Assembly (NCBI RefSeq): GCF_030684315.1
Contig: NC_081387.1
Location: 11,324,867 to 11,388,866, forward strand
DNA from: Stegostoma tigrinum
Taxonomy: Eukaryota
Reading direction: 5' to 3'
DNA length: 64,000 nt
The notes beneath the pieces were generated by a model. The model was not told the origin of the DNA and ran no database searches. It saw nothing but the letters and a program-made list of their open reading frames with translations. The stretch's first letter is position 1. Every line of letters starts with the position of its first letter. A program made the position numbers and the translations under genes. Shown piece by piece: positions 1,879 through 38,600 of the stretch.

Positions 1879-3325
1879 AAGGTGACTGGAAATGTTTAAG
1901 TTAAGTCATGAGTCAGTTGTCTGGAGTATCAATAGAGTTGTTTAACCCACCGCTCTTTGGATTCAACCAGAAAAAGCCAATATCAGTGTAAATATTATTC
2001 AACGTTATTGACTGAAGTTGCAGAGGGGTTTGACTATATTCGAAAGATATTTACATTTCTGCAGAAAGGAGGATGAATTTATGAAACAGAACAGAAGCCA
2101 GTGCCAGTAATGATTTTATACACTCCAACTTTCGTGCTGAAACTAAAGGTTTGAAATATTCACCCCTAAACAGTACTGTTTTGAGAAGTGCTGTGCAAAG
2201 TGAGATTCCCGAAATTGCAGAGTCGTGGACCCCTTGGAAAACATTATAACACTTCTTATTCCATTTTAATGTTTTCTGCATGTCTTGCTTCCCAGCTAAA
2301 TTGTAGAAGGCAAAGTATTTGCAAGTGAGATTGGCATTCCTTCCAATCGGATTAACATTCTCCACGCATGAGTTATACACTTAATTTTGCACTCGACTGG
2401 ATTGTGCTCCACTCGCAATATCATAAAGATCGGGTGGGGCGGGGCGTTGGGGACGGGGGAGGGGATTAGGATGTGGAGGATGGAAATTTTGCGCTATTTT
2501 GCGGCCATTTAAGTTCAGTTGCCTTCGCGCTCACGTTAAAGCTGGTCAAGCGTTTCGATTTCGCAGAATGATCGAGCGTACAGCGGTGGGAGGAAGTTTT
2601 TGAATGACAGCGCGAGTTTGCAGGTAACTGTGCGGTGTGCCGACCACCCAGATTCTGCAGGAGTCGGTTTACTCAATCTCACGCCTAGAGTTAGAATCGC
2701 TGGAGAATGAAGTTGCCCCGTTACGAGCAAGACCACATTACTCGCGTTGGGTTCAACTAATTCATGGTAGTGGCGACAATTCCAAAATATATTGAACACG
2801 ATCGTTCGACTGTCTCAAATACTGATCACTTCATTAAGTATCCGACAACTAATTATAAACAGAGAGTGACCACAAAGCAGTTCAATAATACCAAGCGTTC
2901 TCCTCAGTCAAAACCAACCGTGAACTAAACTAAACAAGCGGAGCTGGCGTTCTGAAACAAAAACAGAAATTGCTGGAGAAAGTCAGCAGGGCTGGTAGCA
3001 TGCATGGAGAGAGGAAATAGAGCGAACGTTTGGAGTTCAGTCACATCAGTGAAGGCTGAGTTTCTCCAGAAATTCCTGTACCTATTATCTCTAATAAAAT
3101 CAAAGCTGTTTGTTCTTTTCATATTCTGTGGGAAGTGTTTCCAAATTGTAAACTCAGCCCTTCGACGTGATTAATCTGTTAGGTAGTTAGGAAAGGTTGT
3201 GCGAGAGAAAATGACAGAAGTGGTATTCGATAACATTTGCCAGACTTCTGTCATTTTCTCTTTCACAACCTTTCCTCATCCCCTTCCATCAACACGCACA
3301 CATAGCAAACACTTTAGTACGTGCT

Positions 3326-3543
3326 CAGAGATAATGGGAACTGCAGATGCTGGAGAATCCAAGATAATAAAATGTGAGGCTGGATGAACACAGCAGGCCA
3401 AGCAGCATCTCAGGAGCACAAAAGCTGACGTTTCAGGCCTAGACCCTTCATGATGAAGGGTCTAGGCCCGAAACGTCAGCTTTTATGCTCCTGAGATGCT
3501 GCTTGGCCTGCTGTGTTCATCCAGCCTCACATTTTATTATCTT
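3326..3543. mobile_element. Penelope-tail-derived fold-back element (family A)
   Basis: Near-perfect hairpin 3361-3543 plus a one-sided ~35-nt extension; perfect TSD ACTTTAGTACGTGCT (3311-3325, 3544-3558). Confidence 0.85.
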
Positions 3544-4619
3544 ACTTTAGTACGTGCTGCTATTTTATAGCCGAACTAGTAGCTAGTGGCTATTTTGTAC
3601 TGTGATCTCAACTGAGAACTCAACCCATCCACCAAACAGTTAATACGATGCGTTTTCCTATACCTCAGCCCTCGCCTGAGGTGCAGTGACCCTGAGATTA
3701 AATCTCTAATGGGGGAGCACCCATTATCTGTGATCTGGTAAGACTGCAGTAATTTCACCTTGAATTGGAAGGCATTTTCAAACCATGACTTTTGCATCCT
3801 CAACTGAATGGTTTTACTGGATCGTCGTCAATCATACCATCCAATAGACAACATTTGCTTATCATTTCTGCATAAAAACCGAGATGTCCCCTACCAGTAA
3901 GATGCAAATCTCTAAACTTAATGCCACTTTCCTGCTGATTTTACTTAATCAATTTCACGTGCACAACTTGGAACTCTGCAAGAAACCGTACAATCACCAA
4001 CTGTCTCATTTTCCTGCATTATTTCTGACTTAGTTCATTAACGTTTTGCGGAGCTTCAGAATAGGCCGGAACGCAAGTGCTGACCTCTATGTGATGGGAT
4101 TGATTTATTTGTTTCAATGGTGTTGAACATCAGATGAGGTGCAAAGCAGCTCGCACAGAGTCGCTGCCCACGGAGAATTACCAATTCTACTGCGAAATCC
4201 AAAAGCTCTTTGGTTTACCTGCTAACCTTCCTCTGAAGCGTGAACGATGTTCTGTGATTGTGGTAAGACATACCACACGAGGTGGACTCTGAATATTAAG
4301 TGAGCACTCGATTTGACCCCCTTTAACTTGACCTATGTTTCAAGCTATGCATCAAATAGAAGCCCTTTTCAGTTCTTGCCCTTGTCTCATTCCTGGGCCC
4401 ATCAATTAAAGAGAAAGCATTCAGCATGAAGGGGCTAATCATCAGCTTGCTAAGGGCTCCCATAATTCTTCATTATTTCTAAAGGGAGGAAGACGTGTTG
4501 GAAGGTAGAAAGCAAACAAGGTAAGAAAATATAAATGATATACATTTATTAAAGTTCCACCACTTAAAACCTAGATATACATTACCTTAAAGAGAAATCT
4601 AAGCAGGATATTGATAAGA

Positions 4620-4771
4620 GATAATGGGAGCTGCAGATGTTGGAGAATCCGAGATAACAAAGTCTGGAGCCTGAATGAACACAGCAGGCCAAGCAGCACA
4701 AAAGCTGACGTTTCGGGCCTAGACCCTTCATCAGAAAAGCTGCGCTCATCCAGCTCCACAATTTGTTATCT
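4620..4771. mobile_element. Fold-back element family A, internally deleted
   Basis: Same terminus; core CTGATGA...GAAACGTC on minus strand 4707-4734; TSD aggata(t/c)gataaga. Confidence 0.75.
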
Positions 4772-6039
4772 AGGATATCGATAAGATTTTTTTTCATGAC
4801 TTGCTACATAGCAACACAAAAACGACAGTGTTGCTGTGGACCCTTTGTGTAGCCATTCCCAAATTGTTGCATGTTGAAAAAGGTTTAAATTTCATCCAAT
4901 ATATGTTAAACTGGTACTCAAATGCTTTAAGCAAGTTTTGCTAAGAAATTTCCAAGCTACGCAAGTACGTTAATAGTCTTCTCGTTCCTAAACGTTTTTT
5001 CTTTATTCTTCAAGAACAGGGACTTCGCAGTTCAAGAAGGCAGCTCATCACCACCTTCTCAGGGGCCACCAGGGACGGGCAATGAATCCTGGCCCAGCCG
5101 GCGACGCCCATGTCCCATGAGAATATAAAACAAGAATAATAATTTGTTTTTGATTAATTTTCCAATGAACTGTACTACTTTAGCATAAAAAGAATTACGT
5201 GATAGCTGAATCATCAGTAACAAGGATATTTGTCCTGCGTTTGTAATGGGTTGCAGTCGGGATTTTGCTGTTAACAACACTACCATCGTAAAGTGTGAGC
5301 TGTTGTTCTTCCTGACTTCGGCAAACTGTTGAATTTGTCCACTCTGTTCTGGGGGTATTAAAAAGTTGCCGCAGTTAACGTGGATCACAGCGTCTAAGCG
5401 TAAATGGTGTAAATAATAATTTGTTAAAATTGCAACGATGCTTTAGTGAAGGTATCAACGACACGTATTGACGAAAACAGAGAAATTTATTGGAAGGCAG
5501 TATCTCAATCTATTAGAGCAGACTTTTCAACCAATAACACCTATTTCATCTGTAGCGTTTTTTACATTTGTTCCGATGAGTACAAGACTAAAAGCTTGAG
5601 AACATTTATCTTCTTTTCCAAAAGAATATTCACTTTCTGTGCTAATAAGGGACCGTTTGTAAAAACTTCTGGTCAATTTCTCATGTTGGCAAATATTCCT
5701 TAAGTTCATAGGCTATGTAATGAGTCTTATTATCGCAGACAACTTCCCATTAAAAGTAACATTATTAATTGGGCTTTATTTTATCTTTTCAGTTTTCCAA
5801 TGTACCGAATAACGAGCATGGTGGCAAACACATAATGGATCAGACTCTGTATTATCCTGGCTTGCAGGCTTCATTAATAAATGCTGACTTATACCATGAA
5901 TTGTTTGCCTTGTATTTCCTCTCAGGAGGACAGTCAAGTGATACTGTTGCGGGGACGTGTTACAATGTTTTAGGACAGTTTGAATGAGCCTTTAAAAATT
6001 GAACTGTTTATAAAGGACAAATGTAGAGATGTAATGGTT

Positions 6040-7010
6040 AAGATCCGTCAGAACAAATAAACCTTATTGCTTCTGAAAGTAACTGAAGTGGTGGACCCGG
6101 ACATTTCTTGCATGTAATTGATGTGGATTTCAATTAGACATTCCACAATCGTCCCTGAGAAATATTATTTCGTAAAAAATGAAGATCACAGAATGGAAAT
6201 CAAATTATAAACTTCATTAAACATTTACCTTGGCTGTTGCGGACTGACAGTAGGGATAATAGGTGTAGACTCAAAACAAGAATGAAGTAACCAATAGCAT
6301 CACACGTGTTGGCGTTGGATTCCTACTGGTAAACTGCACATTTTAATGAATAGGTAGTATAATAAAGATATATCTAAGTTAACAAAGATTTAAAGATAGG
6401 AGATAAAGTAAGTCATATAAACGGAAAATGAAATGAAAAGTGAGGTGGAATAATGGTAAAAATTGTGGTAAATTATTTAATGTGGGCGGTGTTTAATTAT
6501 CCATCTTGGATTTAAAGAAATGAAGAGAGTAGAGTATGACCAAATGGAGAATAATAGATATAGAATTCCAAACAAGTTTAAGGATCTTATACACCCAAGG
6601 CATTAAGCTCTCATGCCGATTACAAAGTAAAGGAAACAAATGGAATGTTAACATTGATACTTCATACAGTAGAAATTAAAGGGGAGGTAATATTTTCCCT
6701 ATGACAACGTAAATCCCTGGTTTGGACCATGTCTGGAGTATAGTGCTGCGTACACTCTGGACTCTATGCCTAAAAATGAAAGTTTGCAATAAAAATTTTA
6801 AAAAATTGCAAAGGATATATGTTACAGAAATGGTGCGGGTCAAGGTTACACAATATTAAATTTTATCCACGGACCAAAACAGTTTTTTTGCCTTGGTTAT
6901 TAAAGGGTATATAGATTCCTGGTTTGTTAATGAAAAAGGATCTGCATCAGCCTTATTATAATTTAGTAAGGAAACACACTCGAGGGTTTGAGTGGCCTCC
7001 TCCTATTCTG
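6040..7010 (+). mobile_element. Highly decayed CR1 LINE
   Basis: Remnants of the DV..DF..AFD, KSLVWTMSGV (KxLVRPHLEY-like) and 3' UTR motifs. Confidence 0.5.
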
Positions 7011-7197
7011 ATGCAACACCTGGTAAAAACCCCACCTTGGGCAGACAGACAAACCTCAATGACCCTCCTTCACAATTTAAAAATGCAAGCTTAACCCTTG
7101 CATTGCCGAAGTTAAGCAGGAACAAAAGTTCCTCGTAGGCTTCCAACCGCTGGCCTATAAGTGCAATGTTATAATTACCGATCTCTGAAGCCTGGTG

Positions 7198-7256
7198 ACT
7201 TTCACTTTGTTCTAAAGTGAGAGACAGACAGGGACTTTCTTTTATAGTTGACCAAT
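7198..7256. promoter_or_regulatory. IRF/ISRE + NF-kB-like + CCAAT motif cluster
   Basis: ACTTTCACTTT (7198-7208), GGGACTTTCT (7231-7240), CCAAT (7252-7256) in apparently non-repetitive DNA. Confidence 0.35.
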
Positions 7257-7842
7257 GAATGACCAGTCACCATGCTGTTTCGTGCAGTCAAAAAAATTGA
7301 AGCTCTGTCATTGCACTCAAAGTGGCTCCAATAACATCGTCTGGGCTGAGGGTTCAGTATTTAAGACTCAGTAATGGAATACCTGAGCAGGAATGAATCA
7401 CTGGGTTTAAGCAGTCATCTGGTAAAAGTTGCCAATACATACGTTTGGTGCAGTAGTAATCCTCATGGGCTGGGTAGGAGGCGCAAATCCGATCTTCCTC
7501 CAGCGGTGTGTCCGAGTGGATTGTTTCGGGTTTATTCTTAACAGAGAAAAACGTCCAGCAGGAGGCGCTTTCCTGAATTCGAATAACTCATCGCCAGCCG
7601 TTCATCGGGCTTATAAATGAAATAGGCCCCTTGTGCTGCAGCTGAAAGAACCGCACACGACCTTGAGCTAAAAAGAGGCTGTGAGGCAGCAACAGGGAAG
7701 TAATTAGAGAATCAACTGCCGGAGAGTATTTTTCTTTCTCTCCGCCGAGATGCCCCAAAATCCAGTGATTCCCGCTGGGCTTTTTGCTTATATTATTATT
7801 AGTTAAGTTATATTATTTTCTGAAGTCGTTATTGTTTTGCTA

Positions 7843-9480
7843 TAGAACAGAGGACATAGAACAATACAGCGCAGAACAGGCCCTTCGGCCCTCGATGTTG
7901 CGCCGACCTGTGAACTAATCTAAGCCCATTCCCCTACACTATCCCATTTTCATCCATATGCTTATCCAAGGACTGTTTAAATGCCCCTAATGTGGCTGAG
8001 TTAACTACATTGGCAGGCAGGGTGTTCCATGCCCTTACCACTCTCTGAGTAAAGAACCTGCCTCTGACATCTGTCTTAAATCTATCACCCCTCAATGTGT
8101 AGCTATGCCCCCTTGTACAAGCTCAAGTCATCATCCTCGGAAAAAAGACTCTCACTGTCCACCCTATCTAAGCCTCTGATCATCTCGAATGTTTCTATTA
8201 AATCCCCTCTTAGCCTCCTTCTCTCAGATGAGACCAGACCCAAGTCCCTCAGCCTTTCTTCATAAGACCTTTGCTCCAGACCAGGCAACATCCTGATAAA
8301 TCTCCTCTGCACCTTTTCCAATGCTTCCACATCCTTCCTGTAACGAGGTGACCAGAACTGCACGCAATATTCCAAATGAGGCCGCACTAGTGTCTTGTAC
8401 AGTTGCAGCATGACATCACCGCTCCAGAACTCAATCCCTCTACCAATAAAACCTAAAACACCGAAAGCCTTCAAAATGGGTGGCAACTTTCAGGGATCTA
8501 TGTACATGGACACCAAGAGCCCTCTGCACATCCACACTGCCAAGAATCTTTCCATTAACACAGTATTCTGCCTTGCTATTATTCTTCCCAAAGTGAATCA
8601 CCTCACATTTATCAGCATTGAACTCCATTTGCCACCTTTCAGCCCAATTCTGCAGTTTATCCAAGTCTCCCTGCAACATTCTTCCACACTGTCCACCACT
8701 CCACCGACTTTAGTGTCATCTGCACACTTAATAACCCATCCACCAATGCCTGTGTCCAAGTAATTTATAAAAATGACAAACAGCGGTGGTCCCAAAACAG
8801 ATCCTTGAGGCACACCACTAGTAACCAGACTCCAGGCTGAATATTTTCCATCAACCACCATTCATTGCCTTGTTACAGAAAGCCAGTTTCTAATCCAAAC
8901 TGCTAAATCTCCCTCAATCCCATGCCTCTGTATTTTCTCCAATAGCCTACCATGTGGAACCTTATCAAAGGCTTTACTGAAGTCCATGTACACCACGTCA
9001 ACTGCCCTTCCCTCATCCACATGCTTGGTCACTGTCTCAAAAAAGTCACGGACGTTTGTGAGACACAACCTGCCCTTGACGAATCCATGCTATCTCCAAT
9101 CAAATTGTTGTTTGCTAGATGATTATAAGTCTTTTCTCTTATAATCCTTTCCAAAACTTTTCCTACAACAGACGTAAGGCTCACTGGTCTATAATTACCT
9201 GGGTCATCTCTACTGCCCTTCTTGAACAAGGGCACAACATTTACAAGCCTCCAGTTCTCTGATACTAAACCTGTAGACAATAAGGACTCAAAGATCAAGG
9301 CCAAGGTCAAAGGCTCCACCACCTCCTCCCGAGCTTCCCAGAGAATCCTTAGAAAAATCCCATCTGGCCCAGGGGATTTATCTACCTTCACACCTTCTAG
9401 AATTGATAACACCTCATCCTTACTAACGCCCATCCTTTCAATTCTGGAAGCCCGTAACTCAGTCTTCTCCTCTACAATAT
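7843..9480 (-). mobile_element. CR1 (HER1-type) LINE, 5'-truncated and frameshifted
   Basis: RT motifs [37 protein letters not shown]; (ttctatg)-type tail. Confidence 0.95.
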
Positions 9481-9626
9481 TCAACAATCAGTGGATATCA
9501 GTGGATTGCATCTGCAGCTGACCACAGATATGCTACACCATGTGTAGCTCATTGAGTCCAACACTTACATGCCTCATGGTCATGGGACCTCGTCTTTCAT
9601 TTCATAGTTTGTGCTAATTTGGACCT

Positions 9627-10958
9627 TTGGAAAAGGTTATGAGAGATAGGATTTATAATCATCTAGAAAAGAATAAATTGATTAGGGACAGTCAGCATGG
9701 TTTTGTGAAGGGAAGGTCATGCCTCACAAACCTTATTGAGTTCTTTGAGAAGGTGACCAAACAGGTAGATGAGAGTAAACCGGTTGATGTGGTGTATATG
9801 GATTTCAGCAAGGCGTTCGATAAGGTTCCCCACAGTAGGCTATTGTACAAAATGCGGAGGAATGGGATTGTGGGAGATATAGCAGTTTGGATCGGAAATT
9901 GGCTTGCTGAAAGAAGACAGAGGGTGGTGGTTGATGGGAAATGTTCATCCTGGAGACCAGTTACTAGTGGTGTACTGCAAGTGCCAGTGTTGGGTCCACT
10001 GCTGTTTGTCATTTTTATAAAGGACCTGGATGAGGGTGTAGAAGGATGGGTTAGTAAATTTGCAGATGACACCATGGTCGGTGGGGTTGTGGACAGTGAA
10101 GAAGGATGTTGTAGGTTACAGAGAGACATAGATAAGCTGCAGAGCTGGGCTGAGAGGTGGCAAATGGAGCTTAATGCAGACAAGTGTGAGGTGATGCACT
10201 TTGGTGGGAGTAACCAGAAGGCAAAGTACAGGGCTAATGGTAAGATTCTTAGTAGTGTAGATGAGCAGAGAGATCTCGGTGTCCATGTACACCGATCCTT
10301 GAAAGTTGCCACCCAGGTTGACAGGGCTGTTAAGAAGGCATACAGTGTTTTAGCTTTTATTAATAGAGGAATCGAGTTCCGAAACCATGAGGTTATGCTG
10401 CAGCTGTACAAAACTCTGGTGCAGCCGCATTTGGAGTATTGCGTACAGTTCTGGTCACCACATTATAAGAAGGATGTGGAAGCTTTGGAAAGGGTGCAGG
10501 GGAGATTTACTAGGATGTTGCCTGGTATGGAGGGAAGGTCTTATGAGGAAAGGCTGAGGGACTTGAGGCTGTTTTCGTTAGAGAGAAGAAGGTTGAGAGG
10601 TGACTTAATTGAAACATATAAAATAATCAGAGGGTTAGATAGGGTGGATAGGGAGAGCCTTTTTCCTAGGATGGTGATGGCGAACACAAGGGGGCATAGC
10701 TTTAAATTGAGGGGTGGAAGATATAGGACAGAGGTCAGAGGTAGTTTCTTTACTCAGAGAGTAGTAAGGGAATGGAACGCTTTGCCTGCAACGGTAGTAG
10801 ATTCGCCAACTTTCGGTACATTTGAGTCGTCATTGGACAAGCATATGGACGTACATGGAATAGTGTAGGTTAGATGGGCTTGAGATCGGTATGACAGGTC
10901 GGCACAACATCGAGGGCCGAAGGGCCTGTACTGTGCTGTAATGTTCTATGTTCTATGT
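9627..10958 (+). mobile_element. CR1 LINE, 5'-truncated, with an open 413-aa RT frame
   Basis: QHGF, DFSKAFDKVPH, FADD, HLEYCVQFWSP; (ttctatg)n tail. Confidence 0.95.
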
Positions 10959-11454
10959 ACCCACCGCTATCCGATAAAGGTATCACACAAGATACAGACC
11001 CAATAACACAGAAGTTTTGCAATATGGTGCGAAGATGGGTAATATTGCCTACAGGGTTTTAAATATGAACCGTGTAACAAACTATGTTTGACAGAGTGGT
11101 TCCAATTGAAAGTTGCAACCTTGTGAAAGAAAAGACAATTCCCAATTGCTGATATACTGTGTAGTGATTGGAACCAAGTGGGTCTTATTGACTACGTATG
11201 TCTGAGTAATTTTGCTTAATAAATCTATGGATTGGCAATTCAAAGTCTTGTCCTGACCTGGAGTTGAGGAGGGTAAACGGATTCATTTCTTCGCCTATTT
11301 CCTCCACTAGTTATAGTAAAATTTGAATCGTAGACTTGCCTATAACAGCTGTCAGTCTCTTGTAGTAGAAAAATAACGCATGGTTTGATGCAAAGCATAA
11401 CCCAGGCAGTGATGCAACGTTACTAAATGTCCAACTACATTGTTTGAAAAATAA

Positions 11455-11526
11455 TACACACAAACGTATACACACGCGCACACACACACAGACACAAACA
11501 CTTGCGCACACAGGCGTACAAAGGCA
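11455..11526. repeat. Imperfect (CA)n microsatellite next to the assembly gap
   Basis: cacacgcgcacacacacacagacacaaac. Confidence 0.8.
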
Positions 11527-11720
11527 NNNNNNNNNNNNNNNNNNNNNNNNNNNNNNNNNNNNNNNNNNNNNNNNNNNNNNNNNNNNNNNNNNNNNNNNNN
11601 NNNNNNNNNNNNNNNNNNNNNNNNNNNNNNNNNNNNNNNNNNNNNNNNNNNNNNNNNNNNNNNNNNNNNNNNNNNNNNNNNNNNNNNNNNNNNNNNNNNN
11701 NNNNNNNNNNNNNNNNNNNN
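11527..11720. other. Assembly gap (194 N)
   Basis: Run of n. Confidence 1.
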
Positions 11721-11971
11721 TAATGCTCAGTCTTGTCGTTGAGATACGTTGGCCCAGTAGCAGTTAAACTCGGTAAAAAGGACTGTCAGTCTACAACAGC
11801 TAAAGTAAATGTTTAATGAGGTTTATAATTTGATTTCCATTCTGTGATCTTTATTTTTACGAAATAGCCTTTCTCAAGCACTTAAGTACAAGATGGTTCT
11901 GAGCGCAGCCACTTTCTTCATCAGCTGCTGGTACTGGGCGGGGTTTCATTCGGGATCAGGCATCAGGAAAG

Positions 11972-12075
11972 AGATCACAATGTGCAGAGCTGGATGAACA
12001 CAGCAGGCCAAGCAGCATCAGAGGAGCAGGAAAGCTAATGTTTCGGGCCCCAGACCCTTCTTGAAATCCCCTTTT
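11972..12075 (-). mobile_element. Penelope 3' tail fragment
   Basis: gctggatgaacacagcaggccaagcagcatc shared with family A. Confidence 0.7.
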
Positions 12076-13253
12076 CTGGAGATAGTGGTGAAGCTTCAGC
12101 GCTGTCTTTTAAGAAACTCGCATCTGCAGTGATGCAGTCTTCCAGCGGGTTTTAAAGCCAGTTACATGGGCGAGACCGGTTTCAAAGAAATACTGAAAAA
12201 TCTGTAACTCCTGTGTCAAATTCTCTCTGGCTATGTTCAAAAACCGAGAGTTTTTTTTTACACCACAAAATGGGCCATGTGGCCAATCCCTGAACGTGTT
12301 GGAGACTCATTGTCTCCAGTCAAGCATTTTGTCCCTGCAAATATCACATTGTTGCTTCTGCAGTCAGTTCATTGCTTTGCAAACTGGCAATTTCAAGAGG
12401 TTTCAGAAAACACGTTTTCTTAACAATTCAAATGACACCTTCGTTTTTGAGGAACATATTAAGGTATGTTACTTTTTAGGTTTCACTGGCGGCCATCAGC
12501 TATCACAGTGTTTAAGGACATAAAATGCATGCACTTTTAGCTCAACTTGAGATGTACCTGATTGTCAATGCTGAATGAAGAACCTTCATTTTTTTCTCTT
12601 GGAACAATAGAGAAGAGAACAGAAGATTAGAATGCTTAATGACTTTAAATGACCAGTCAACATTTGCAAACTATCCACGGCTATGATTCTAACTGCAACA
12701 AGTGGATTGACCATCGCGACAAAATGCAAAATTCATCTGTATATCAGTTATTTTACATACAAAGTAAGGTTTCGTTGTAAGCAACAGCCACACGTACACA
12801 AGCAATCAGGGACAAACGCAATCTTCGACAGTTAAAGTGAAGCACATTCGCTGTGGACACTGGATTGTCGTCATTTGGATTCTTGTAAATGCAATTGAGC
12901 TGGATGACAAAATAATGCGCTCTAACTAGTTCGTGTTCTGAACTATGTTTCAATTATATTCATGTTATTTTAGCGCTGATATGTCACTGGTAAAACGGCC
13001 GCTAATTTTAGAACTTGCGGTGAGCAGCTTGGTCACAAGGTTAGAGATTTTACACTGAAGCTACCGGTGCAAGCTACCGGTTGTGGTCGCGTTGCAAATT
13101 GGTAACTCTGATGTTCATTATGAATGAGCAGAAATTGGTGTTTAATGAGTGTAAGAAAAAGAAATAGGCAAAGAAATATCCGGTTTTCTAAAGTTTTTAG
13201 ATATGACCGATTAAATGAAACACTCCGATTTATAAATAAGAATAACTGACAAC

Positions 13254-13332
13254 CTGAGACGTGGAGGCGCCGAACTGATTTGGTCCCAGTCAACACCGCT
13301 CACTATTGGACCTCCCATTTCCTCAAACTTTA
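13254..13332 (-). CDS. Possible cytoplasmic exon of the NCR3-like gene (VKFEEMGGPIVSGVDWDQISSAPPRL); could read through to a stop at 13211
   Basis: tttttctgcag acceptor, open in the required phase; weak donor; no homology support. Confidence 0.35.
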
Positions 13333-13902
13333 CTGCAGAAAAATGGACGTTTCACAGTCTGGCCAGTGGCCAGTTTCAAACCACAATTCGTCTGGAAAGG
13401 GAACTTGTTCTATATTAACGGTTTGTTAGCGAAACTGAAAAAAAGCTATAAGGCAAAAAATATAACATTCTTGCTGCAACGCTCGTAGCTATTATTAAGG
13501 GAGATAATGGCCAATTGCTTCTAGTAGATATATGGAAAGGGCGATAATTTAAATAGATGCAGTATTCAGGGCTATGAGTGAAAGTGCTGCAGAATGACAT
13601 TAAATTGTAGTGTTCTTTAAGAGAGGCTCTGCAGAAACAAGGAGCCGAACGGCCTCCTTTATCGTGTGAAGATCCTGAGATTCCAGGATTGAGAGAAATG
13701 CACTTTGTTATCGGTTTCAAAGGGGAGTGCCCACACTGTCGGAAATAAACAGCACCTTTTAACGTGCGTTGCTTGCACCTGCACGGGTGACTGGAATAAC
13801 AGTGATGATGGTGTAAATAGCGAATTAGAGTTAGGCTTTATAACGATGCAGTTGTTCCCAGTTGCGTGGTGAAGGGTTTGAGATTATATAAACGATACCT
13901 AC

Positions 13903-14022
13903 CTGACACTCTACTTCGGAAGAAGATGGCAGTGACTGTGAAGCAGAACAGCGCCATCACAATTACCCTTACGGTGACATGCAACGTGTCCAGAGAATTA
14001 GGTGGTTCAATTTGATTTCTCG
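13903..14022 (-). CDS. NCR3: NKp30/NCR3-like receptor, stalk and transmembrane exon (ARNQIEPPNSLDTLHVTVRVIVMALFCFTVTAIFFRSRVS)
   Basis: tttctttacaacag acceptor, G|gtagg donor, phase 1-1; hydrophobic helix with an N-proximal Arg as in NKp30. Confidence 0.78.
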
Positions 14023-14230
14023 CTGTTGTAAAGAAACAAAGGTTATTGTCATCGTCCTTCTTCTCCTCACTTCCGCTATTATCACTAGAATGAAAATTAT
14101 TCAATCCCTTCACCCTCCAAAGCTTGAGTTAAAAACACGTCTCCCCTCTACTTGCCATGGGAAATATGTCATGCCAGCCTCGAAATTGATAGATCTTGTT
14201 CAACCCTACTTCTCTGTCTTGCCCCATTTC

Positions 14231-14557
14231 ATGGAATCCCTAGAGAGTGGAAACAGGTCCTTCTGATCAACAAGTCCACACCGACCCTCAGAACATCCCA
14301 CCCACACCCATTCCCCTAATTCTACACATCTCTGAACACCACGGGTAATTTAGCATGGCCAATTCACCAAACTCGCACATCTTTGGACTGTGGGAAGCAA
14401 CCGGACCACCGAGAGGAAACCCACGCAGACACGGGGCGGGGGGCGGGGGGGGGGGTGATGTGCAAACTCCGCACAGACAGTTGCCGTTGGTTGGGATCGA
14501 GCCCTCGTTCCTGGCGCTGTGAGGCAGCCGTGCTAATCACTGAGCCACCGTGCTGCC
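14231..14557 (-). mobile_element. HE1-type V-SINE
   Basis: tRNA-like head (gtggctcagtgattagcac...), V-domain (gtctgcgtgggtttcc...cccacagtccaaagatgtgc), CR1-derived tail. Confidence 0.9.
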
Positions 14558-14659
14558 GCACGCACTTGACATTCTGTCTTTTGGGAAATAATACTGGTGT
14601 AAAGTAAGCTAACGTCCTTCTCAACACCATGAGTTGAGGGGTTCTACCTGGCTAGCAAT

Positions 14660-15535
14660 TATAATTCATCCCTAGTTGCCTTGGAAAAGTGATAGACAGC
14701 AGATGTCTAGAAATGCTGCAGACCGTGGTGCTGCTGATCCAGTGAAAGAGAAATACAATTCTATGTGAAAAATGGTATGTGGAGGGGAATTTGCAGATAG
14801 TGATGCTTCCATGTATCCAGTGCCCTGACCTTCTCAGTGGTAAAGATTCCAGGGTTAAAAACGAGCAGTCTCAGCTGTACCCCTGCAGCGTATCTCGTGG
14901 ATGGTATAAAATACAGTCATTGTGCAACAGTATGGAAGGGAAAAAGTATTGAGGGTAGTGGATATGGTGTTGATCAACGGAGATGCTTTGGCTGGATGGC
15001 ACCAAGTTTAGTGAATGCTGTTGGGTCTGCACCCATCTGTTAAGTGAAGAGTAGTGTATTGCATTCCTGTTTGTTCATTGGAGATAGCAGACACTCTTCG
15101 GCAAGGCAGGAGGTGAGTTGATCAACGCTGACATGCGCTTGTAACCCGAGACAGTATACTGCTGGTGCCGTTCAATTTCTGGTCAATATCAACTCACAAA
15201 ATGTTGTTACTGGCAGCTTAATGGTGGCAATGATATTGAATGTAAAAGTGTGATAGCTAGATTCTCTCTCCTTGGAGGTTGCTACTCCTCAGCCATAGCC
15301 TGGATTGTATAGATCGTTTTACTATACTTGGACATCAACTACTTTCATATCTGAGGAGTCATGAATGGTGCTGAACATTGTAATCACCCCACTTCTAACC
15401 TTATGATGGAGGGAACATCACTGATAAAACAGCCCAGGATGGTTGTCACTACCGTGACAAAGGCTTGCAGTGATGTCCTGGCGCTGAGATGACTGACCTC
15501 CAACAAGCACAATCCCCTTTCATTGTACTAGGTTC
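14660..15535 (-). mobile_element. Old CR1/L2-group LINE fragment
   Basis: Decayed sequence resembling the fragments at 37110-37850 and 16350-16640. Confidence 0.5.
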
Positions 15536-15728
15536 CAACTTACAAATCAATTAAAGCAGACCCTTTTCAAAGTGTTAATTAGCCTTCCTGGGAAAAGTAC
15601 TCTGTCTACTCTTTATACCATAAATTTAATATGTTTTTATGGGTTTTTATTTCAAATTGATCACTATCAAGCCAGTCCCAGTACTGACTACAAGTATGCA
15701 AGATGAAACTGCACGCATTCCAACTTAA

Positions 15729-15927
15729 GAGATAATGGGAACTGCAGATGCTGGAGAATTCCAAGATAATAAAATGTGAGGCTGGATGAACACAGCAGGC
15801 CAAGCAGCATCTCAGGAGCAGAAAAGCTGAGGTCTGATGAAGGGTCTAGGCCCGAAACGTCAGCTTTTGTGCTCCTGAGATGCTGCTTGACGTGCTGTGT
15901 TCATCCAGCCTCACATTTTATTATCTT
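15729..15927. mobile_element. Fold-back element family A with intact hammerhead-like core
   Basis: Inverted arms; CTGATGA-agggtctaggccc-GAAACGTC at 15834-15861; perfect TSD CGCATTCCAACTTAA (15714-15728, 15928-15942). Confidence 0.85.
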
Positions 15928-17773
15928 CGCATTCCAACTTAATATGCTTTTCTAAGTAAATTTAAGCTAAGCTGCTGGAAATAAAATGAACAATCTAACT
16001 GCCATTTTCTCTGTTGCCTTTTCGAAGGAGTGAAATGGAATGAACTTCAGCACTGCACCAGATCTGAAGAAGGTTCAACATTAGATCATAATTAGCTTAA
16101 TACATTCAGTGAAGTGCATGAAAATTTTAAGGCAGGTATGAGAAATTCTTGAATAGTACAGAGTATAAGGATTTCAAAAACAAATCGGATGGCATGATGC
16201 TGGAATTCTTAAGAATTATTCGATTGAAATACATGAAGACATGACTATAGGAAGGTAATGTAGTTGATATTCTGGAAATGATAGGATCAAGCTAGTGCAA
16301 GTGAGAAGTTCTCTGTCTCTGAACTTAGGTTGGACCTGAAAGTGAAAAGTCTTGCACTTTTATTTCAGTTTATAGACCTGAAGCGCTTGTAACTTCACAT
16401 AATTGAAATGTCAAGGGTCCCAGATACATGGGTGCACCAACATCCATAAGTTCCCCTCCAAGACATACACCATCCTGACTTCTAAATGTATCACCATGTC
16501 TTCATTGTCACTGGGTGAGCATCCTGGAACTTGCTCCCTAACAGCACTGAGCCTGTCCCTGTACCGCATGGACAACAATGACATCGTTTTCAGGCCAATT
16601 ATTGAAGGTACACAAATGCTGGCCTTGCCTGTGACATGCACACTCTGTGGGAAAGATACGTCATTATCTTTTTTTTAAAAAAAGATTTGAACATTCCATA
16701 TACATATTGATTTTTTTTTACTTAAATTAACACACTATGTTGACCTTGTCAAACTTGCCCAGCTACCACTTTGGTTTTAGAAGTTGACCTTTAAAAAGGC
16801 AACTTTGGATGCACTGTTGATGTGAAATTATGGATGAGGAGGCCTTAAGAAGAATGGAACTCGATTTCGAAAGAATCAGGGCATATCACATCGAAAGATT
16901 TTGAATTCTTGGGAATTTTACACTGTCAAACATAATTGGATGGCGCCCCTGCCTGCGGCGAGTGTTACTCTATGTCAGGATATCAGAAGGGGTCAATCAT
17001 TCAAAGCTGCAATGAAGAGAATTTTCTCACTTCATTTGGTGCGAACATTCTCAATTTTAAACAAGAGCTGGCTATGGATGAGGTTTTGTTGAGAACGAGA
17101 GAGTATTAACGCGTGGGGCTGTTGCGGTGCAGTGATTGTGCCCCTATCATTAAGGCAGGAGACTGTGGTTCATATTCCACCCCCCCCCCCCCCATCCTGA
17201 GCTGTGTAAATGACATCTCTAAGTAGGTTGATCAACACATACGTTTTTAAATCAATAAACATAGAGGCATGAAGGTGTCGAAGTATCCAGAGAACAGGAT
17301 GAAGTGCAATTTCTGCAAACAGTCGCACTATGATAAAATTGCATCTGAGGAAGACCGGAAGCAATTGGTATTTCTGTTCTGACAGAACAGTGCAATTTTA
17401 CGCACGAAGAGGTCATTCAGCTCATCGTATCAGCACAGTCAACAGGTCCCCCATTCCAATCCTACTTTCCCCTACTACAATCAACAAACTGGGGCAGAGA
17501 ATTCCAGGTACCCAGCAATTACCTGAAACAGTTTGAACTATTAAGGAAACCATTATTCTTATATTTTCCCCCACGGTGTTATACACTGCTTAGAATTCAA
17601 CACAGCCATTCTTTCATGATCACCAATTCATCTTTAAGATATTTTGATATCAACTCATTCAGATATGGTATTAACTTAAGCTCTGGCCTTCTATTCAGAG
17701 GTAAGGACACTTGCTCCTCCCTACAAGAGCCCAGCAAATCAGCTTTCAAGTTTACAGTATGTGGCATGCTCAC

Positions 17774-32600: not shown

Positions 32601-35600
32601 GCCTTTGGTGAGCATTCCACCCACCAGGAAACACACAGGAAGGCATGCATCAAGTCACTTCTACAATTACTACATGAATAATACTTTAAAGTGACTTTTC
32701 CCATTCAGATGTGAATAATGGCATTTTTAACTACTGAAAAAACAATGCAAACAGCGTGACATTTAATGTCTCAAAATCCAGATCATTTCCTATTTTAGAA
32801 TAGATTTAATCTATTGGAAATAGATAATAGATGGGAATTTTCACTTGGCTGGTTTTCAACGGCCAGACGTGCCAACACATCGATGCTGCTTGCCGTGATA
32901 CTGGAACTTATTGCCAGTGAAAGCACCATACTGCAAATGGGTCACAGTGTGACTCGGTGAAATATTTGAATGAATTACCCAGTTTTACTGCTGTTAACTT
33001 CCATTATATGAAACCCCACAGGCTCTTCCTCGTCGCATCAAGGAGGCTAAAATTTGGTCACGTCGAACCAAGTACATTAATCTCGTTGTTCAATGTCCAG
33101 AACTGTTTACAGAAAGGAGAATGGTCCCAATCCTGCTGTCATCTAAAAAGGGTTATATATTCATTCAGACGGACAAACCAATATACACCCCCAATGAAAA
33201 TGGTGAGCACTACAACATTGTCTACATTTCAATATTTATTTTCACCTAATAATATCCAAAATAAGAGCTAAGAGCTGCTGTCAACTGAATGGATTCACAC
33301 CTAATAGATTCCGAAATAAATCTGAGCACTTCTGCACTCGTCCATTAATGACAATTGCTCTTGTTTCTGGTCCGATGGGCACTTCTGAGATACAGCTGCA
33401 GGGTGGCACGGATAGGGGGCGTGCATACATTTTGGCTAATGTGTTTGCATGTTGAATTTCACATTTCTACTTTCCCCCAGTATTCTGTTATGCCCTTACC
33501 TAAAAGGAATGCTCCTACCTTTGCCTTAACAATATTCAAATACTGCACGCTGACCACTTTCTGAGGCAGAGGGTCGCAAAGGTGCAGAATCCACTGAGAG
33601 ATGTTCAAAAAATTCTCGTGACATGTGCACTTAAATGATGATGCTATATTTTTAAATGGCATCCCCTAATTCCTGATTCACCTATAAGAGAAAATATCCC
33701 TTACAAATCAATATTGTCTTAAACTTCAATCAAGTCAGCAATTTTCCAAACTGCTGTGGAAACAAGCCAGTCAGCCCAAACTGTCCTCACATGCGACTTG
33801 CTTAATGCAAGTAGTAATCTCATGAGATAACAAGGTGTGGAGCTGGATGAACACAGTAGGCCAAGCAGCATCAGAAGAGCAGGAAAGCTGACTTTTTGGG
33901 TCTGGACCGTTCTTCAGAAATAGTGGGGGAGGGGAATGGGGTCAGAAATAAATAGGGAGAAACAGGGAGGCGGATGGAAGATGGATAAAGGAGCAGATTG
34001 GTGGAGAGGAGACAGACAGGTCAATGAGGCAGGGATGTAGCCAGTAGAGGTGAGTGTAGGTGGGGATTTGGCAGGGGATGGGTCAGTCCAGGGAGAATGG
34101 ACAGGTCAAGGGAACGGGATGAGGCTGGTAGAAAGGAGGTGGGAGTGAGGCTTGATAGAGAGGCCGAAACGATGTATAGTATTTACAATGTAGTCTCACC
34201 CATGCTCTATATAACTGGAGGATAACTTTTTTACTTTAATATTCAATCCCTCTTACAATAAAGGATGACATTCCATTAACATTTTGAATAGTTTGTTGTA
34301 CCTGTAATCTCCTGTGATCCCAGTTTTAGTACAATTAGATTCAATTTTTCAGTTTGGCTATTCCGGTGCTCAGTAGTTGAACATATTCAGAAAGATTGTC
34401 AATGCTCTTTTAACCAAAATACAAGAAACAATGATCTTAATGTAAGTAGCAGAAACAAAGAATCAATCCTTTGTCAGCAACATCCTTTGCAGATTTTCAA
34501 TGCCAGTAAAGTGTCATTCCTGTCTGAACTCATTATTTTCTTACAGAACAGAATCTTTCCTGTTTTGATGGCCTAGCAACCTCTTTCCAGTTTTGAGAAT
34601 GCAGATTTTTTTTTGTTCAGTTCTGATAGAATGTTCCTAAAGCTGGGGATTCAACCTGACGATTCGACAGACTGCTTTCTTACCTTTGAAGATCACTATA
34701 ATCTGCCCTTATAGGCAAAACTGTTCTTCTGCAAAGAGGAAACTTCTTTACTTTCTGAACTAAACCTAGCAGTGATCTCTAATCTCTTGATTATCTGTGT
34801 GAAATAACTCTCAGTATAATAAGCACTTCATGTTCAAACTGTAGAATGACAACTCTGAGCCCAAATACATTCATACATACATGCCGTTTCACATACCATT
34901 GAATAATTCAGATTTTCAAGAGGGTGTGAGGCATTCTAGAGGGCATTAGATAATTGTTTGGGTAACAATATGTGCAACGGTATGAGGAAGAAACAGAAGG
35001 TTGGCACTAGACAATGATGCTCATTTAACAAACCAGCGTAGTTCGAATGGCCGTGAAGCCTCTTTCTGAGCTATAACACATCTGTGATTCTAGATTCAAC
35101 GAAATACTGAAACTCATCCATTTTGTTTTATATAATTTAATGATCCAATCAAATGCACTTTCCTTAATATTAAAGATAAACATGTTGACTGGCCCATTTG
35201 TTCCCCTTTTAATTACAGTTCAGTTCCGGATCTTTACTCTCGATCGTTATATGCGACCAGTGGATGAGACTATAAAAATAACTACATACGTAAGTATATT
35301 TGGATACTATATGGCATCAGTCTCATGCTTCTTAAATATATTTCATGACTCCAGCAGAATAAATTAAGTAATTCATGGCAATTTTCAATTACTGATTAAT
35401 GATTTGGATTAGCTTTGCTGGATTCATTCATTTATAACCAATGATGTCCAGTATTTGCATCATGCTATTCATTTAAGCTGGTAGAGTGGTTAGCATACTA
35501 CCTCACAGCACCAGCATCCTGGGTTTGATTTCACCCTCGGGCATCTGCCTGTGTGGCTATTTGCACACTCCCCCCATGTTTATGTGGGTTTCCCTTGGGT

Positions 35601-38600
35601 AATCCGTTTACCTCCCACAGTCCAATGACGTGCATGCTAGCCATGGGAAATGCAGGGTTACAGGGATTGGGTTGGATACTCTTCAGAAGGTCTTAACGTG
35701 GGCTTGGATTAAAATTATACCTCTGAAAAATATGATTTACCAATGCATTAATGGACAGAAACAAGTGTAAATGTGACAGGTTACTTTTTACAAACATTTC
35801 TTCGTGGGATCTGGGCACCACTGGCAAGCCTAAAATTTATTGTCCACCCCGATCTCTCTTGAACTGAGTGGAGTGCCATGTCATTTCGGAGGGCAGTTAA
35901 GAGCCAGGTGCAACAGTTCCATCAGACTGTGGTCCCATTAGAGAGAGGTGGTAGATTAACCAAAAGATCATCAACTCAGACCAGGGGAAAGGTTGAGAAC
36001 AGCAAACATTTGATGTAGCCTCAGCCTGAGTGGAACTGACCATATTGTGTTAAGCATCACAAGCCAGCTATCCAGGCAACTCGCTAACATTAAACCCATT
36101 CCATCCTCTCCCTGGCACATAGTGGCCTCCAAGCTAATCGTTTTCACCAGATCTGAATGACAGCACACCTCTTTGATCTTCTCAGGAAAAGTTTGGGGTG
36201 TTTCTCCTGATTCATGCACGAGAACGTTGGTGGAAAGGGGAGCAGGGTCTCCAGTTGTGAACACTGTAGAATATCCATAGGTGAGAAAATGGAGCCTTTG
36301 AAATTACAGCAAGCTCTACCACAGAGAAGCTGGGGCTAAGGTCAAACAAGTAATATCAACATCGTAAGTCAGCTGCACAGCGTAATTAGGGTGAAACTGT
36401 TTACGCTCACAAAAGAAACAAAAACAAGAAGGCATAGTTTTAAAGTGTGCAAACACAAAAAAACACGATGATATGTGGTAGATAAAGGTTTCATGCAATG
36501 AATTATTAGGGCATGAAATAGAATGTGGAGAAATTGTGGTAGAAGAAGGTTCAATTGAAGGATTCAAGAGTGCATTGGATGCTTATCTAGATAATAATTG
36601 CATGCAAAAGTGTGGGGAAAGACAGGAGTTTAGGTAATAGAACCAGTGCAGGCAGGATGGCCCAAATGGCCTCCATCTGCACTGTAACAATTCTGTTATA
36701 GCCTACCATGTTACGTTGTCAAGTGTGAGCCGTGTTGAGAGCAGAACTATAATTAAGTCTCAAATCGATCTATCACTTTCTCCTGTTAGAACTCTAGAGA
36801 CATGCGGTTTCCCAGCTACTTATTAAACTCAAAATACGGACTGTTCCAGAAGCTAAAGATTCCGGGTATCGCAAAGTGAGTTGCAAGAATATTTCAGCAG
36901 TGTATGTATTTGTTCCACTTTTCCAATTGTTTTTCTACCAATGGACATAAACATATAAGTCAGTGGTAATGATGTGCCCGTTATGGCCTTACGGTCTATT
37001 GCTCAACTAGTCGATTCTAAAAGGTCCAGACCTGAAACATCAGCTTTCCTGCTCCTCTGATGGTGCCTGACCTGCTGCATTCATCCAACTCCACATCTTG
37101 TTATCTCAAGACCTGGACACTTTTCAGTTTTGAGGTGATAAGTGCCAAGCAACATTCATGCCATACAAGTCCCAGACAATGACCATCTCCAATAAGTGAC
37201 AATCTAATAAGTGACATTCAATGCAAAGTCCATCACCTCACCCTCCACTGTCACCATCCTAGGGATTACCATTGACTGGAAGCTCAATCCAGCTAGGCAT
37301 ATAGATATCATGGCTACAAGAACAGGTCAGAGGCTTGAAACATTGCAAAGAGTAACTCATTTCCTGACTCTCTACAGCTTATCCACCATTTGCAAGGGAC
37401 AAATCAGGAATGTGCTGGAAGATCTCTCACTTGCCTGAATGGGTGCAGCTCCATTAATGGTCAAGAAGCTCAACACCATCCAGGGCAAGCTCAATTGGTA
37501 CTACATCCACAAATGTTCACTCCCTTCACCACCGACACTCAGTAGAAGCACTGTATACTATCTACAAGATGCACTGCAGAAATTCACCAAAGCCCCTTAG
37601 ATGAGCCCTTGGTCCCTAGGAAGACAATGACTGCAGATCCACTTCTCTGCATGCTCCCCTTCAAGTCACTCCCCATCCTGATTTGAAAATATATCGTTGT
37701 ATCTTCACTGTCACTAGGTCCAAATCCTGGAACTCAACCTTTAATGGTTTTGTGAGGGCATGGACTGCAGTGGTTCAAGAAGGCAACTTGACACCACCTT
37801 CTCAAGGGACAATTAGGGAGGGGTAAGAAATGTTGGACAATTCAGCAATATATACATCTCTGTATACAGGGGCTAGAAGAGCAAGTAAGAGATGAGGAAT
37901 TCTGAAGAGCGCAACATATCTCATATCTCTCCATAACCTGTCCATCACCTGCAAGCATTAAAGAAAAGACTTTGAACTCTTCTGGCAATGAAACTAAAAC
38001 ACAAAACTCCAACCTGTTTATGGCAGGAGTAAGGTTCACTTCTAATAATTAAAACTGAAACACCCAGTGAAGCTTGCCTTGCCTTTATAATCTGTTAAAA
38101 AGAGTTGTTAAGTGGAAGAATATCCCTGATATTCACATTAGAAGTAACAAGTAACAGTTTATTTATTTAATCCTAACAGTGAACAAATTAACAGAAATAC
38201 GAACAAACCAAACTCCCAACTATTCCTTAACTGAATAAAATTTGACTGGTATGTTATTCCAATAAACAAATGTTTCACTTACACAGCCCAATTAATAAGA
38301 AATAGAAATAAAACTTAGTCTCTGAAAGTCCACGCAGAATGGGTCTTCCAGAATGGTCTGCCTTCTCCACCGTGTCTCCAATCATAAACACCTTTCTTCT
38401 GCTGTTCTCAAGTCATAAACACCTTTTTCCCACTGATCCTGCTGTCAGGGATGTTTTCTCTCTGAATTTTTTTGTGAGAACTCTTAGTTATAAGAGCTGT
38501 GGTACCTTTTATGGATAGATGGTGCTTTCTTACAGAGCTGAGTGATTTCTTGTGAGAGCCAGATGCTTATTTCTGAGATGCTGGCTCATTCCGACCCCAA

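Follow-up and report, generated by a model that had tools for sequence, protein, structure and literature searches.

A 64,000-nucleotide stretch of the Stegostoma tigrinum genome (NC_081387.1, positions 11,324,867 to 11,388,866; hereafter the window) contains several short, non-coding hairpins, each with a tail on one side only. Probably they are what an autonomous Penelope-like retrotransposon with an endonuclease, here called family A, leaves as its shortest insertions, and they would have been formed anew at each site by a cut in both target strands followed by extension. The element itself is ordinary for its class; its value lies in being a mechanistic read-out of how a poorly understood class inserts. 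The origin of the inverted repeats, the tail and the pseudo-long terminal repeats (pLTRs) of Penelope-like elements (PLEs), together with hammerhead cutting in vivo, is named as an open question in passages of PMC8557442, PMC2377424, PMC4209133 and PMC11167929. Family A, a large natural sample with many open reading frames (ORFs), makes the steps testable and offers sharp numbers for them: a stagger of 14–15 nt, starts of copying at about 0 and 34 nt, and predicted RNA ends at about 131 and 99 nt.

Hairpin copies in the window

All five hairpins with a one-sided tail reported in the first-pass annotation are present in the window sequence. The first family A copy is flanked by an exact 15-nt target-site duplication (TSD; 3311–3325, repeated at 3544–3558) and is composed of a tailed arm at 3326–3451 on the reverse strand, which matches the long copy L046 at 97.6%, and a tail-less inverted arm at 3451–3543 on the forward strand. 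Element coordinates are counted inwards from the tail tip, position 1 being window 3328 in this copy, and a copy read tail first gives the cDNA sequence. The tailed arm reaches position 124 and the tail-less arm runs from position 126 to 34; the tail begins at 3328, and 3325–3327 is the element's own sequence past the tail tip. The hairpin at 15729–15927 is enclosed by a second perfect 15-nt TSD (15714/15928, the whole spanning 15714–15942); its tailed arm extends to position 104, and its tail-less arm starts deeper, at position 128. The latter arm contains, by reading, a minimal hammerhead core motif that is complete (CUGAUGA, helix II, GAAAC, GUC; 15834–15861, forward strand), with the features given in the relevant passages of PMC4209133, and the tail-less arm of the first copy has this core without its first C.

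Both perfect 15-mers had been noted before and are confirmed, but the diverged repeats described at the other hairpins hold at one site only. An older family A copy at 4618–4771 carries a 15-nt TSD with one mismatch at 4605/4772 (4605–4786 in all), whose score of 11 is above chance, the best of 195 mismatched-flank controls reaching 7. The flanks of the old copy at 46025–46243 (an exact 10-mer, or 13 nt including two mismatches; score 7) and those of the hairpin at 1537–1787, which belongs to an older Penelope-like family (family B; 17 nt with three mismatches; score 5), are no better than these controls. The second arm is just ~30 nt long in the copies at 4618 and 46025, the tailed arm of the latter measuring about 135–147 nt. 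In copy 4618–4771 the tailed arm stops at the first G of a G run (4739), after which there is a C.

The parent element

Family A copies range from about 100 bp to more than 3 kb, with the hairpins at the short end grading into coding copies. In counts by sequence pattern over the same genome, the 33-nt tail has 31,109 exact matches and a degenerate 33-nt arm motif has 168,924, controls read backwards giving 0 in both cases; a pattern of arm plus tail start has 62,827. A 766-aa stretch in locus L046 matches RVT_1 (E 3e-5) and GIY-YIG (E 0.003), both below the Pfam cut-offs, and L117, with a unit length of ~3.6 kb, has the DKG, YIDD and VVY-CxxC-YIG motifs. Open frames of 972–1115 aa were found in 20 loci, which had been selected for open frames. 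These features describe family A as a predicted autonomous PLE with a single ORF for a reverse transcriptase (RT) plus a GIY-YIG endonuclease at the C terminus.

The Penelope-like origin proposed in the first-pass annotation is upheld; the arms are continuous with this ORF. The arm is the 3′ end of the element, as had been claimed, and it is also the 5′ end: the ORF starts just past a tail copy, and, in a set of 79 loci, 15 of the 17 copies extending as far as the start of the unit have a direct upstream pLTR. The assignment to Penelope in the sense of a clade, by contrast, fails. In L046 a C-x4-C-x2-C linker precedes the GIY-YIG domain. The CCHH motif is present too; according to the passages available of PMC8557442, a CX2-5CxxC linker with CCHH characterizes Neptune/Nematis, the linker being absent in Penelope/Poseidon. 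Judged by this linker motif, the predicted parent belongs with Neptune/Nematis, taken as an undivided pair.

Family B is an older relative, laid out in the same way. Its end aligns with that of family A at a score of 97 (300 shuffles: mean 46.5, s.d. 5.7, maximum 65), and its read-through copies continue into a GIY-YIG domain. A minimal hammerhead core motif is seen by eye in both families, with a weak helix I in family A; an Rfam search gave no match.

Target-site duplications and junctions

Copies were analysed in the window and in loci within the initial 6.3 Mb of contig C1 of the same genome, leaving out 40 loci picked by protein search. The 265 tail ends comprise 195 with a tailed and an inverted arm, 63 without an inverted arm, two complex and five cut by an edge; an inverted arm is thus found at 195 of 260 non-edge tail ends. 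Two-armed copies have a TSD in 132 of 195 cases, against 0 of 195 mismatched flank pairs used as controls (best control score 7). The mode is 15 nt and 112 of the 132 fall within 12–16 nt, so that the length peak near 15 nt for which the first-pass annotation had proposed a tabulation does exist. After allowing for chance extension, the cut stagger would be ~14–15 nt. Preference for target sequence is mild only (62% versus 59% A+T).

The tail-less arm ends at positions 30–40 in 139 of the 195 copies, and 13 of the 195 have a tail at both ends. The TSD overlaps the element by at least 2 nt in 57 of 98 junctions on the tail side and in 68 of 104 on the other side, with a null expectation of 18% in each case (24 and 18 rows with inserted bases, respectively, left out). 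Microhomology at both target junctions fits priming from both nicks. Extension past the tail tip is alike in short and long copies (at least 4 nt in 45/177 versus 21/83; p 0.64), and this equal extension into ORF-side sequence implicates the 5′ pLTR of full-length elements.

Minor classes of tail-less arm ends lie at positions 50–60 (13/195) and 78–92 (10/195), with examples near 52–54 and 78–92 in L015, L026, L038 and others. In L050, at 1415–1785 from the tail end, an arm piece of ~50 nt (positions 46–82) is repeated about five times in tandem within one insertion.

Centres and arm asymmetry

Among 127 short copies there are 116 distinct centres, and the eight that recur are at palindromes or at the end point at positions 128–136 described below (the wall). 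This agrees with the idea, raised in the first-pass annotation from the differing apices, that each hairpin formed independently. Inserted bases occur at the centre in 51 of the 127 and microhomology of at least 3 nt in 36, as expected for end joining.

The two arms were compared in 163 two-segment copies out of the 182 with one tail. With a threshold of more than 10 nt, the tail-less arm is deeper in 57 and the tailed arm in 40, and the two agree within 10 nt in 66. The tail-less arm is more than 100 nt deeper in 12 of the 163, nine of which have a TSD; in the most extreme pair the arms measure 717 and 2676 nt, with a 13-nt TSD. In such copies the tail-less arm holds sequence that is absent from the tailed arm, which a self-folded cDNA cannot supply without later deletion.

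Two further proposals about the arms were rejected. Mixed subfamily haplotypes, sought as a sign that the arms came from two RNAs, are too faint to support such an origin (discordance of 3–15% at diagnostic sites against a background of 4.9%, with 17/163 copies differing at three or more sites). An A-to-I editing scar was considered, as both arms, read as cDNA, show more A>G than T>C (38 versus 18 and 47 versus 20, not normalised), but this excess runs opposite to editing of the sense RNA and agrees with the A-rich arm.

A common end point of the short copies

Hairpins of at most 260 nt account for 134 of the 260 tail ends. Across the two-segment copies with one tail, arm lengths are coupled: both arms are at most 140 nt long in 127 copies, both exceed 140 nt in 32, and only 4 of 163 are mixed (Fisher 2e-29). 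This coupling indicates that the template, rather than each polymerase, sets the length. Position 128 is reached by 215 arms; 110 of them stop at 128–136, with a peak at 130–132, and 105 read through; on inspection, six of the 110 stops look like read-through of an older subfamily. In family A, short arms end either 1–9 nt short of the hammerhead core or at the predicted ribozyme cut, and in family B 55 of 69 arms stop 0–7 nt before the core. Genome-wide, where counts were made by sequence pattern and end classes come from 100 listed matches sorted by eye, the pattern with a non-G after position 131 has 10,447 matches; among the 100 listed, 93 are true ends. When the wall sequence is passed a second time, in the upstream pLTR, 0 of 9 copies stop there (p 0.002), which argues against a stall caused by the sequence; the upstream pLTRs end at ~29 (three), 51, 72, 83, 157, 204, 487, 544, 637, 1111, 1138, 1229 and 1505.

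Where an arm breaks off at the G run's first G, the next base is an unexplained C in 24 of 31 cases, versus 12 of 44 at eight other stops (p 2e-5), and in a strict set, with 11 doubtful rows removed by eye, in 13 of 20 versus 12 of 44 (p 0.006). The extra C is likely a copied cap. The RNA start implied, a C followed by pyrimidines, is one that we take to resemble a TCT or 5′-TOP start. Joints at 131, 128 and 99 in RNA contigs (X3) were not used as evidence, as contigs cannot show starts, nor were loose RNA ends at 99 (X1, X2), which look like divergence.

The predicted ribozyme cut

The predicted GUC cut falls immediately before position 99. In the sample, 17 arms end there, compared with one to four at each neighbouring position from 94 to 104, and seven of the 17 have a partner that ends elsewhere. 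The genome-wide estimates at 99 are ~1,340 non-palindromic and ~1,920 palindromic ends, with ~365 ends at 98 and ~775 at 100. Perfect palindromic centres are estimated at ~700 for position 99, compared with 21 at 72 and 37 at 104.

Several observations weigh against a ribozyme origin of this class. Position 99 is also a 4-nt palindrome; in the sample, the neighbouring palindrome at 112 is the centre of 2 of 127 copies, against 5 of 127 for 99; and microhomology feeds the class in 4–5 of 23 non-palindromic rows. Helix I of family A has only ~2 bp and does not form in the predicted fold. For the anole element, passages of PMC11167929 report that cleavage is dispensable in vitro and that no RNA-seq reads end at the site. 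Taken together, the odds on ribozyme cleavage in vivo are roughly even.

Head-to-tail units of 100 nt, from the tail tip to position 99 or 100, were also seen, at G000:C1:4383874 and 4383974 (L055) and at 6335865; such units occur in three of the 100 matches listed and stop at the cut site. They look as if the RT had jumped from the ribozyme-cut 5′ end to a new start.

Proposed insertion mechanism

In the mechanism that we propose, the enzyme would cut both DNA strands ~14–15 nt apart, and both cut ends would probably be extended on the element RNA, copying the start of that RNA. From one nick, synthesis would begin at the tail tip, and from the other ~34 nt deeper, with 1–5 nt of pairing assisting each. 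End joining would then link the two cDNAs head to head, and gap filling would yield the TSD. Less surely, copying would begin on the tail copy near the RNA 5′ end and run off after ~131 nt on a capped start or after ~99 nt on a ribozyme-cut start, giving the short hairpins. Long copies would come from a template without such an end: a circle, a strand transfer or a read-through transcript. Priming from two sides is the simplest account of the arm asymmetry and the junction microhomology, together with the extension of both strands observed in vitro for the anole element. The stereotyped, strongly truncated insertions recording the mechanism of integration, which the first-pass annotation gave as one of two options, are supported.

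A more ambitious reading, in which the stubs, tens of thousands of them, would form a fossil map of the transposition cycle, is less likely than not. Priming from both nicks would take place on the RNA's 5′ tail copy. Capped linear RNA whose first base is a C within a run of pyrimidines, 4–5 nt before the hammerhead, would give the 131-nt run-off arms, and ribozyme-cut RNA the 99-nt arms, which would then be evidence of cleavage in the germ line. Productive long and more-than-unit copies would derive from a circular monomer or from a transfer resembling that of strong-stop cDNA, regenerating the pLTR.

Some of the data pull away from the proposed two-strand mechanism. The arms agree in 85–97% of cases at nine diagnostic subfamily sites and share rare variants at 22 of 598 positions, against 0.4% by chance; this concordance fits one RNA copied twice, but equally a fold-back or later conversion between arms. 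Lopsided arms could arise after insertion by asymmetric deletion of a longer palindrome, and the extra C could be due to terminal-transferase or snap-back synthesis; moreover, one control position for the extra C, 128 (45 rows), was dropped because of contamination by a second subfamily. The 63 of 260 tail ends without an inverted arm (TSD in 21 of 63, against 0 of 200 controls) also sit uneasily with it. The sample, from one contig and the window, was chosen in part by exact motifs and is biased to young copies, and the support from the anole element crosses clades, the anole protein being of a different clade without the CX2-5CxxC linker.

The leading alternative is that the cDNA folds back and copies itself, any lopsidedness resulting from trimming or later deletion at an unstable centre. 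Self-priming of this kind has already been put forward for inverted junctions of PLEs (in passages of PMC3846280), and the shared variants, the 66 near-symmetric copies of 163 and the existence of perfect palindromic centres all agree with it. Nevertheless, it demands an additional deletion in at least 57 of the 163, up to ~2 kb, with the TSDs staying intact, and it explains neither the second-arm ends at 30–40 with target microhomology nor the wall at 128–136 in both arms. We consider it unlikely, and the fold-back priming suggested in the first-pass annotation does not stand as the general route, given a deeper tail-less arm in 57 copies and a difference above 100 nt in 12. An RT that is primed from both sides and simply stalls or drops off at the purine run before the hammerhead, instead of reaching an RNA end, is a good deal less probable still: the stops do border a G-rich stretch of the cDNA, but independent stalls predict about a third of mixed arms where four of 163 were seen, no second pass stops at the wall, and in family B, where the flanking sequence differs, the stops are equally far from the core.

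The hairpins might instead be a non-autonomous mini-family, transcribed and re-inserted as units, or built from short RNAs of short copies used in trans. Such derivatives of PLEs are known (passages of PMC8557442 and bioRxiv 10.64898/2026.07.22.740005), an internal promoter is described in the pLTR of the Penelope of D. virilis (in part of PMC2377424), and both the abundance of the hairpins, about half of all tail ends, and the sharp separation of short and long classes speak for it. A unit that is re-inserted should have a shared centre, which is lacking here, and the ORF-side extension past the tail is as frequent in short as in long copies. The weaker form, in which short RNAs from short copies serve as templates in trans, is compatible with a varying apex. 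Overall this explanation is improbable, slightly more so than the fold-back, and the distinct family that the first-pass annotation gave as its other option is contradicted by the varied centres and by lengths that grade into coding copies. That the hairpins are miniature inverted-repeat DNA transposons has almost nothing to recommend it. They are short and non-coding, with inverted arms and flanking duplications, but the one-sided tail, the variable centre and length and the 12–16-nt TSD do not suit such elements, and the continuity of the arms with the RT/GIY-YIG ORF refutes the idea. Non-LTR retrozymes, which are head-to-tail repeats each with a hammerhead, were ruled out, as the copies are head to head.

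Comparison with known systems

The layout of inverted pLTR, tail and TSD has been published, as seen in passages of PMC3846280, PMC8557442, PMC8969392, PMC2377424, PMC7761336 and bioRxiv 10.64898/2026.07.22.740005. In the open literature no report was found of a fixed wall, of an extra C, or of two-sided PLE products or a model for them; Repbase, Dfam, subscription papers and supplements were outside this search. Insertions of endonuclease-bearing PLEs such as Pen2a_Av (PMC3846280 and PMC8557442, in the parts available) share with family A an inverted truncated arm, a one-sided tail of 30–40 nt and a TSD, as well as the partial-tandem pLTR, the hammerhead motif (by eye in family A) and an RT with a C-terminal GIY-YIG domain. 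They differ in that here about half of the tail ends are ORF-less hairpins below 260 nt, the TSD peak is at 14–15 nt and not, as in those passages, at 8–10 nt, and the arms, coupled in length, terminate at a fixed wall.

Another parallel is PAc, the Poseidon element of Anolis carolinensis, for which passages of PMC11167929 describe, in vitro, cutting and extension of both strands and two RT starts bounding the tail. The hammerhead of PAc lies ~25–26 nt downstream of an AUG in its core, and a dimer has been modelled. Its starts are not homologous to the cut DNA, whereas microhomology of 1–5 nt is enriched here, and those passages say nothing of joined products with two arms, of how long the TSD is or of the 5′ ends of the RNA. 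LINE-1 twin priming, as presented in part of PMC11702581, also uses the second nick to prime a second cDNA and has TSDs of 12–18 bp, microhomology and, at full-length 5′ ends, an extra G derived from the cap. Its pieces come from adjacent parts of the RNA, one starting at the poly(A), whereas here both starts lie within 35 nt and the same stretch is copied twice, which yields a hairpin.

For metazoan PLEs, pairs of minimal hammerheads on opposite strands, 100–700 bp apart, were noted and circular templates proposed (passages of PMC4209133). The minimal core with an unpaired base before helix II, read by eye in family A, is shared with the hammerheads of PLEs and retrozymes (PMC4209133 and bioRxiv 10.64898/2026.07.22.740005, in part). 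Retrozymes form head-to-tail arrays, in contrast to the head-to-head single insertions with TSD observed here. Family A also seems to have been met in 2006 in the nurse shark, judging from primers compared by eye: one for NSRE1 matches window 3461–3484, in the arm, and one for NSRE2 matches 59334–59357, at the endonuclease end, each at 22 of 24 bases. The passages of PMC1513397 leave both repeats unclassified and mention no hairpin, tail, TSD or link to Penelope.

Other features of the window

A family A remnant on the reverse strand at 58869–59388 includes the end of the endonuclease domain, the 3′ untranslated region (UTR) and the arm (positions 605 to 56), with no tail and no inverted arm (tblastn 70% over 63 aa, E 6e-19). 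The first-pass annotation had taken this remnant (58868–59388) as GIY-YIG-coding and as the source of the arm sequence. The shared arm is real (93% over 69–71 nt), but of the endonuclease domain just the final ~40 residues are encoded, without the GIY-YIG motif. Further pieces of family A are a tail-less arm running into the 3′ UTR at 33825–34154 (reverse strand, positions 35–315), an arm fragment at 11979–12060 (reverse, positions 44–122) and a tail-less arm fragment at 37020–37106 (forward, positions 121–35). A long copy of family B at 54236–55115, on the reverse strand, comprises arm, 3′ UTR and a decayed GIY-YIG region (36–50% identity, E 1e-30), and at 2940–3092 a degraded arm of family B is accompanied by a short inverted piece and, on the opposite strand, by a stretch like the family A tail. 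The sole run of N in the window (11527–11720, 194 bases) touches no copy discussed.

Other inverted structures are also present. The hairpin at 637–856, with 99-nt arms (90%), is unrelated to families A and B and has one related copy, in L175, among 1.95 Mb of loci. An inverted pair of abundant RT fragments of the long interspersed nuclear element (LINE) type, presumably CR1-like by motif, occupies 8670–10115, with 422-nt arms at 78% and 149 matches in 70 loci. Finally, a small hairpin with 33-nt arms at 3189–3276, with no relative among the loci analysed, adjoins the first family A copy on its left.

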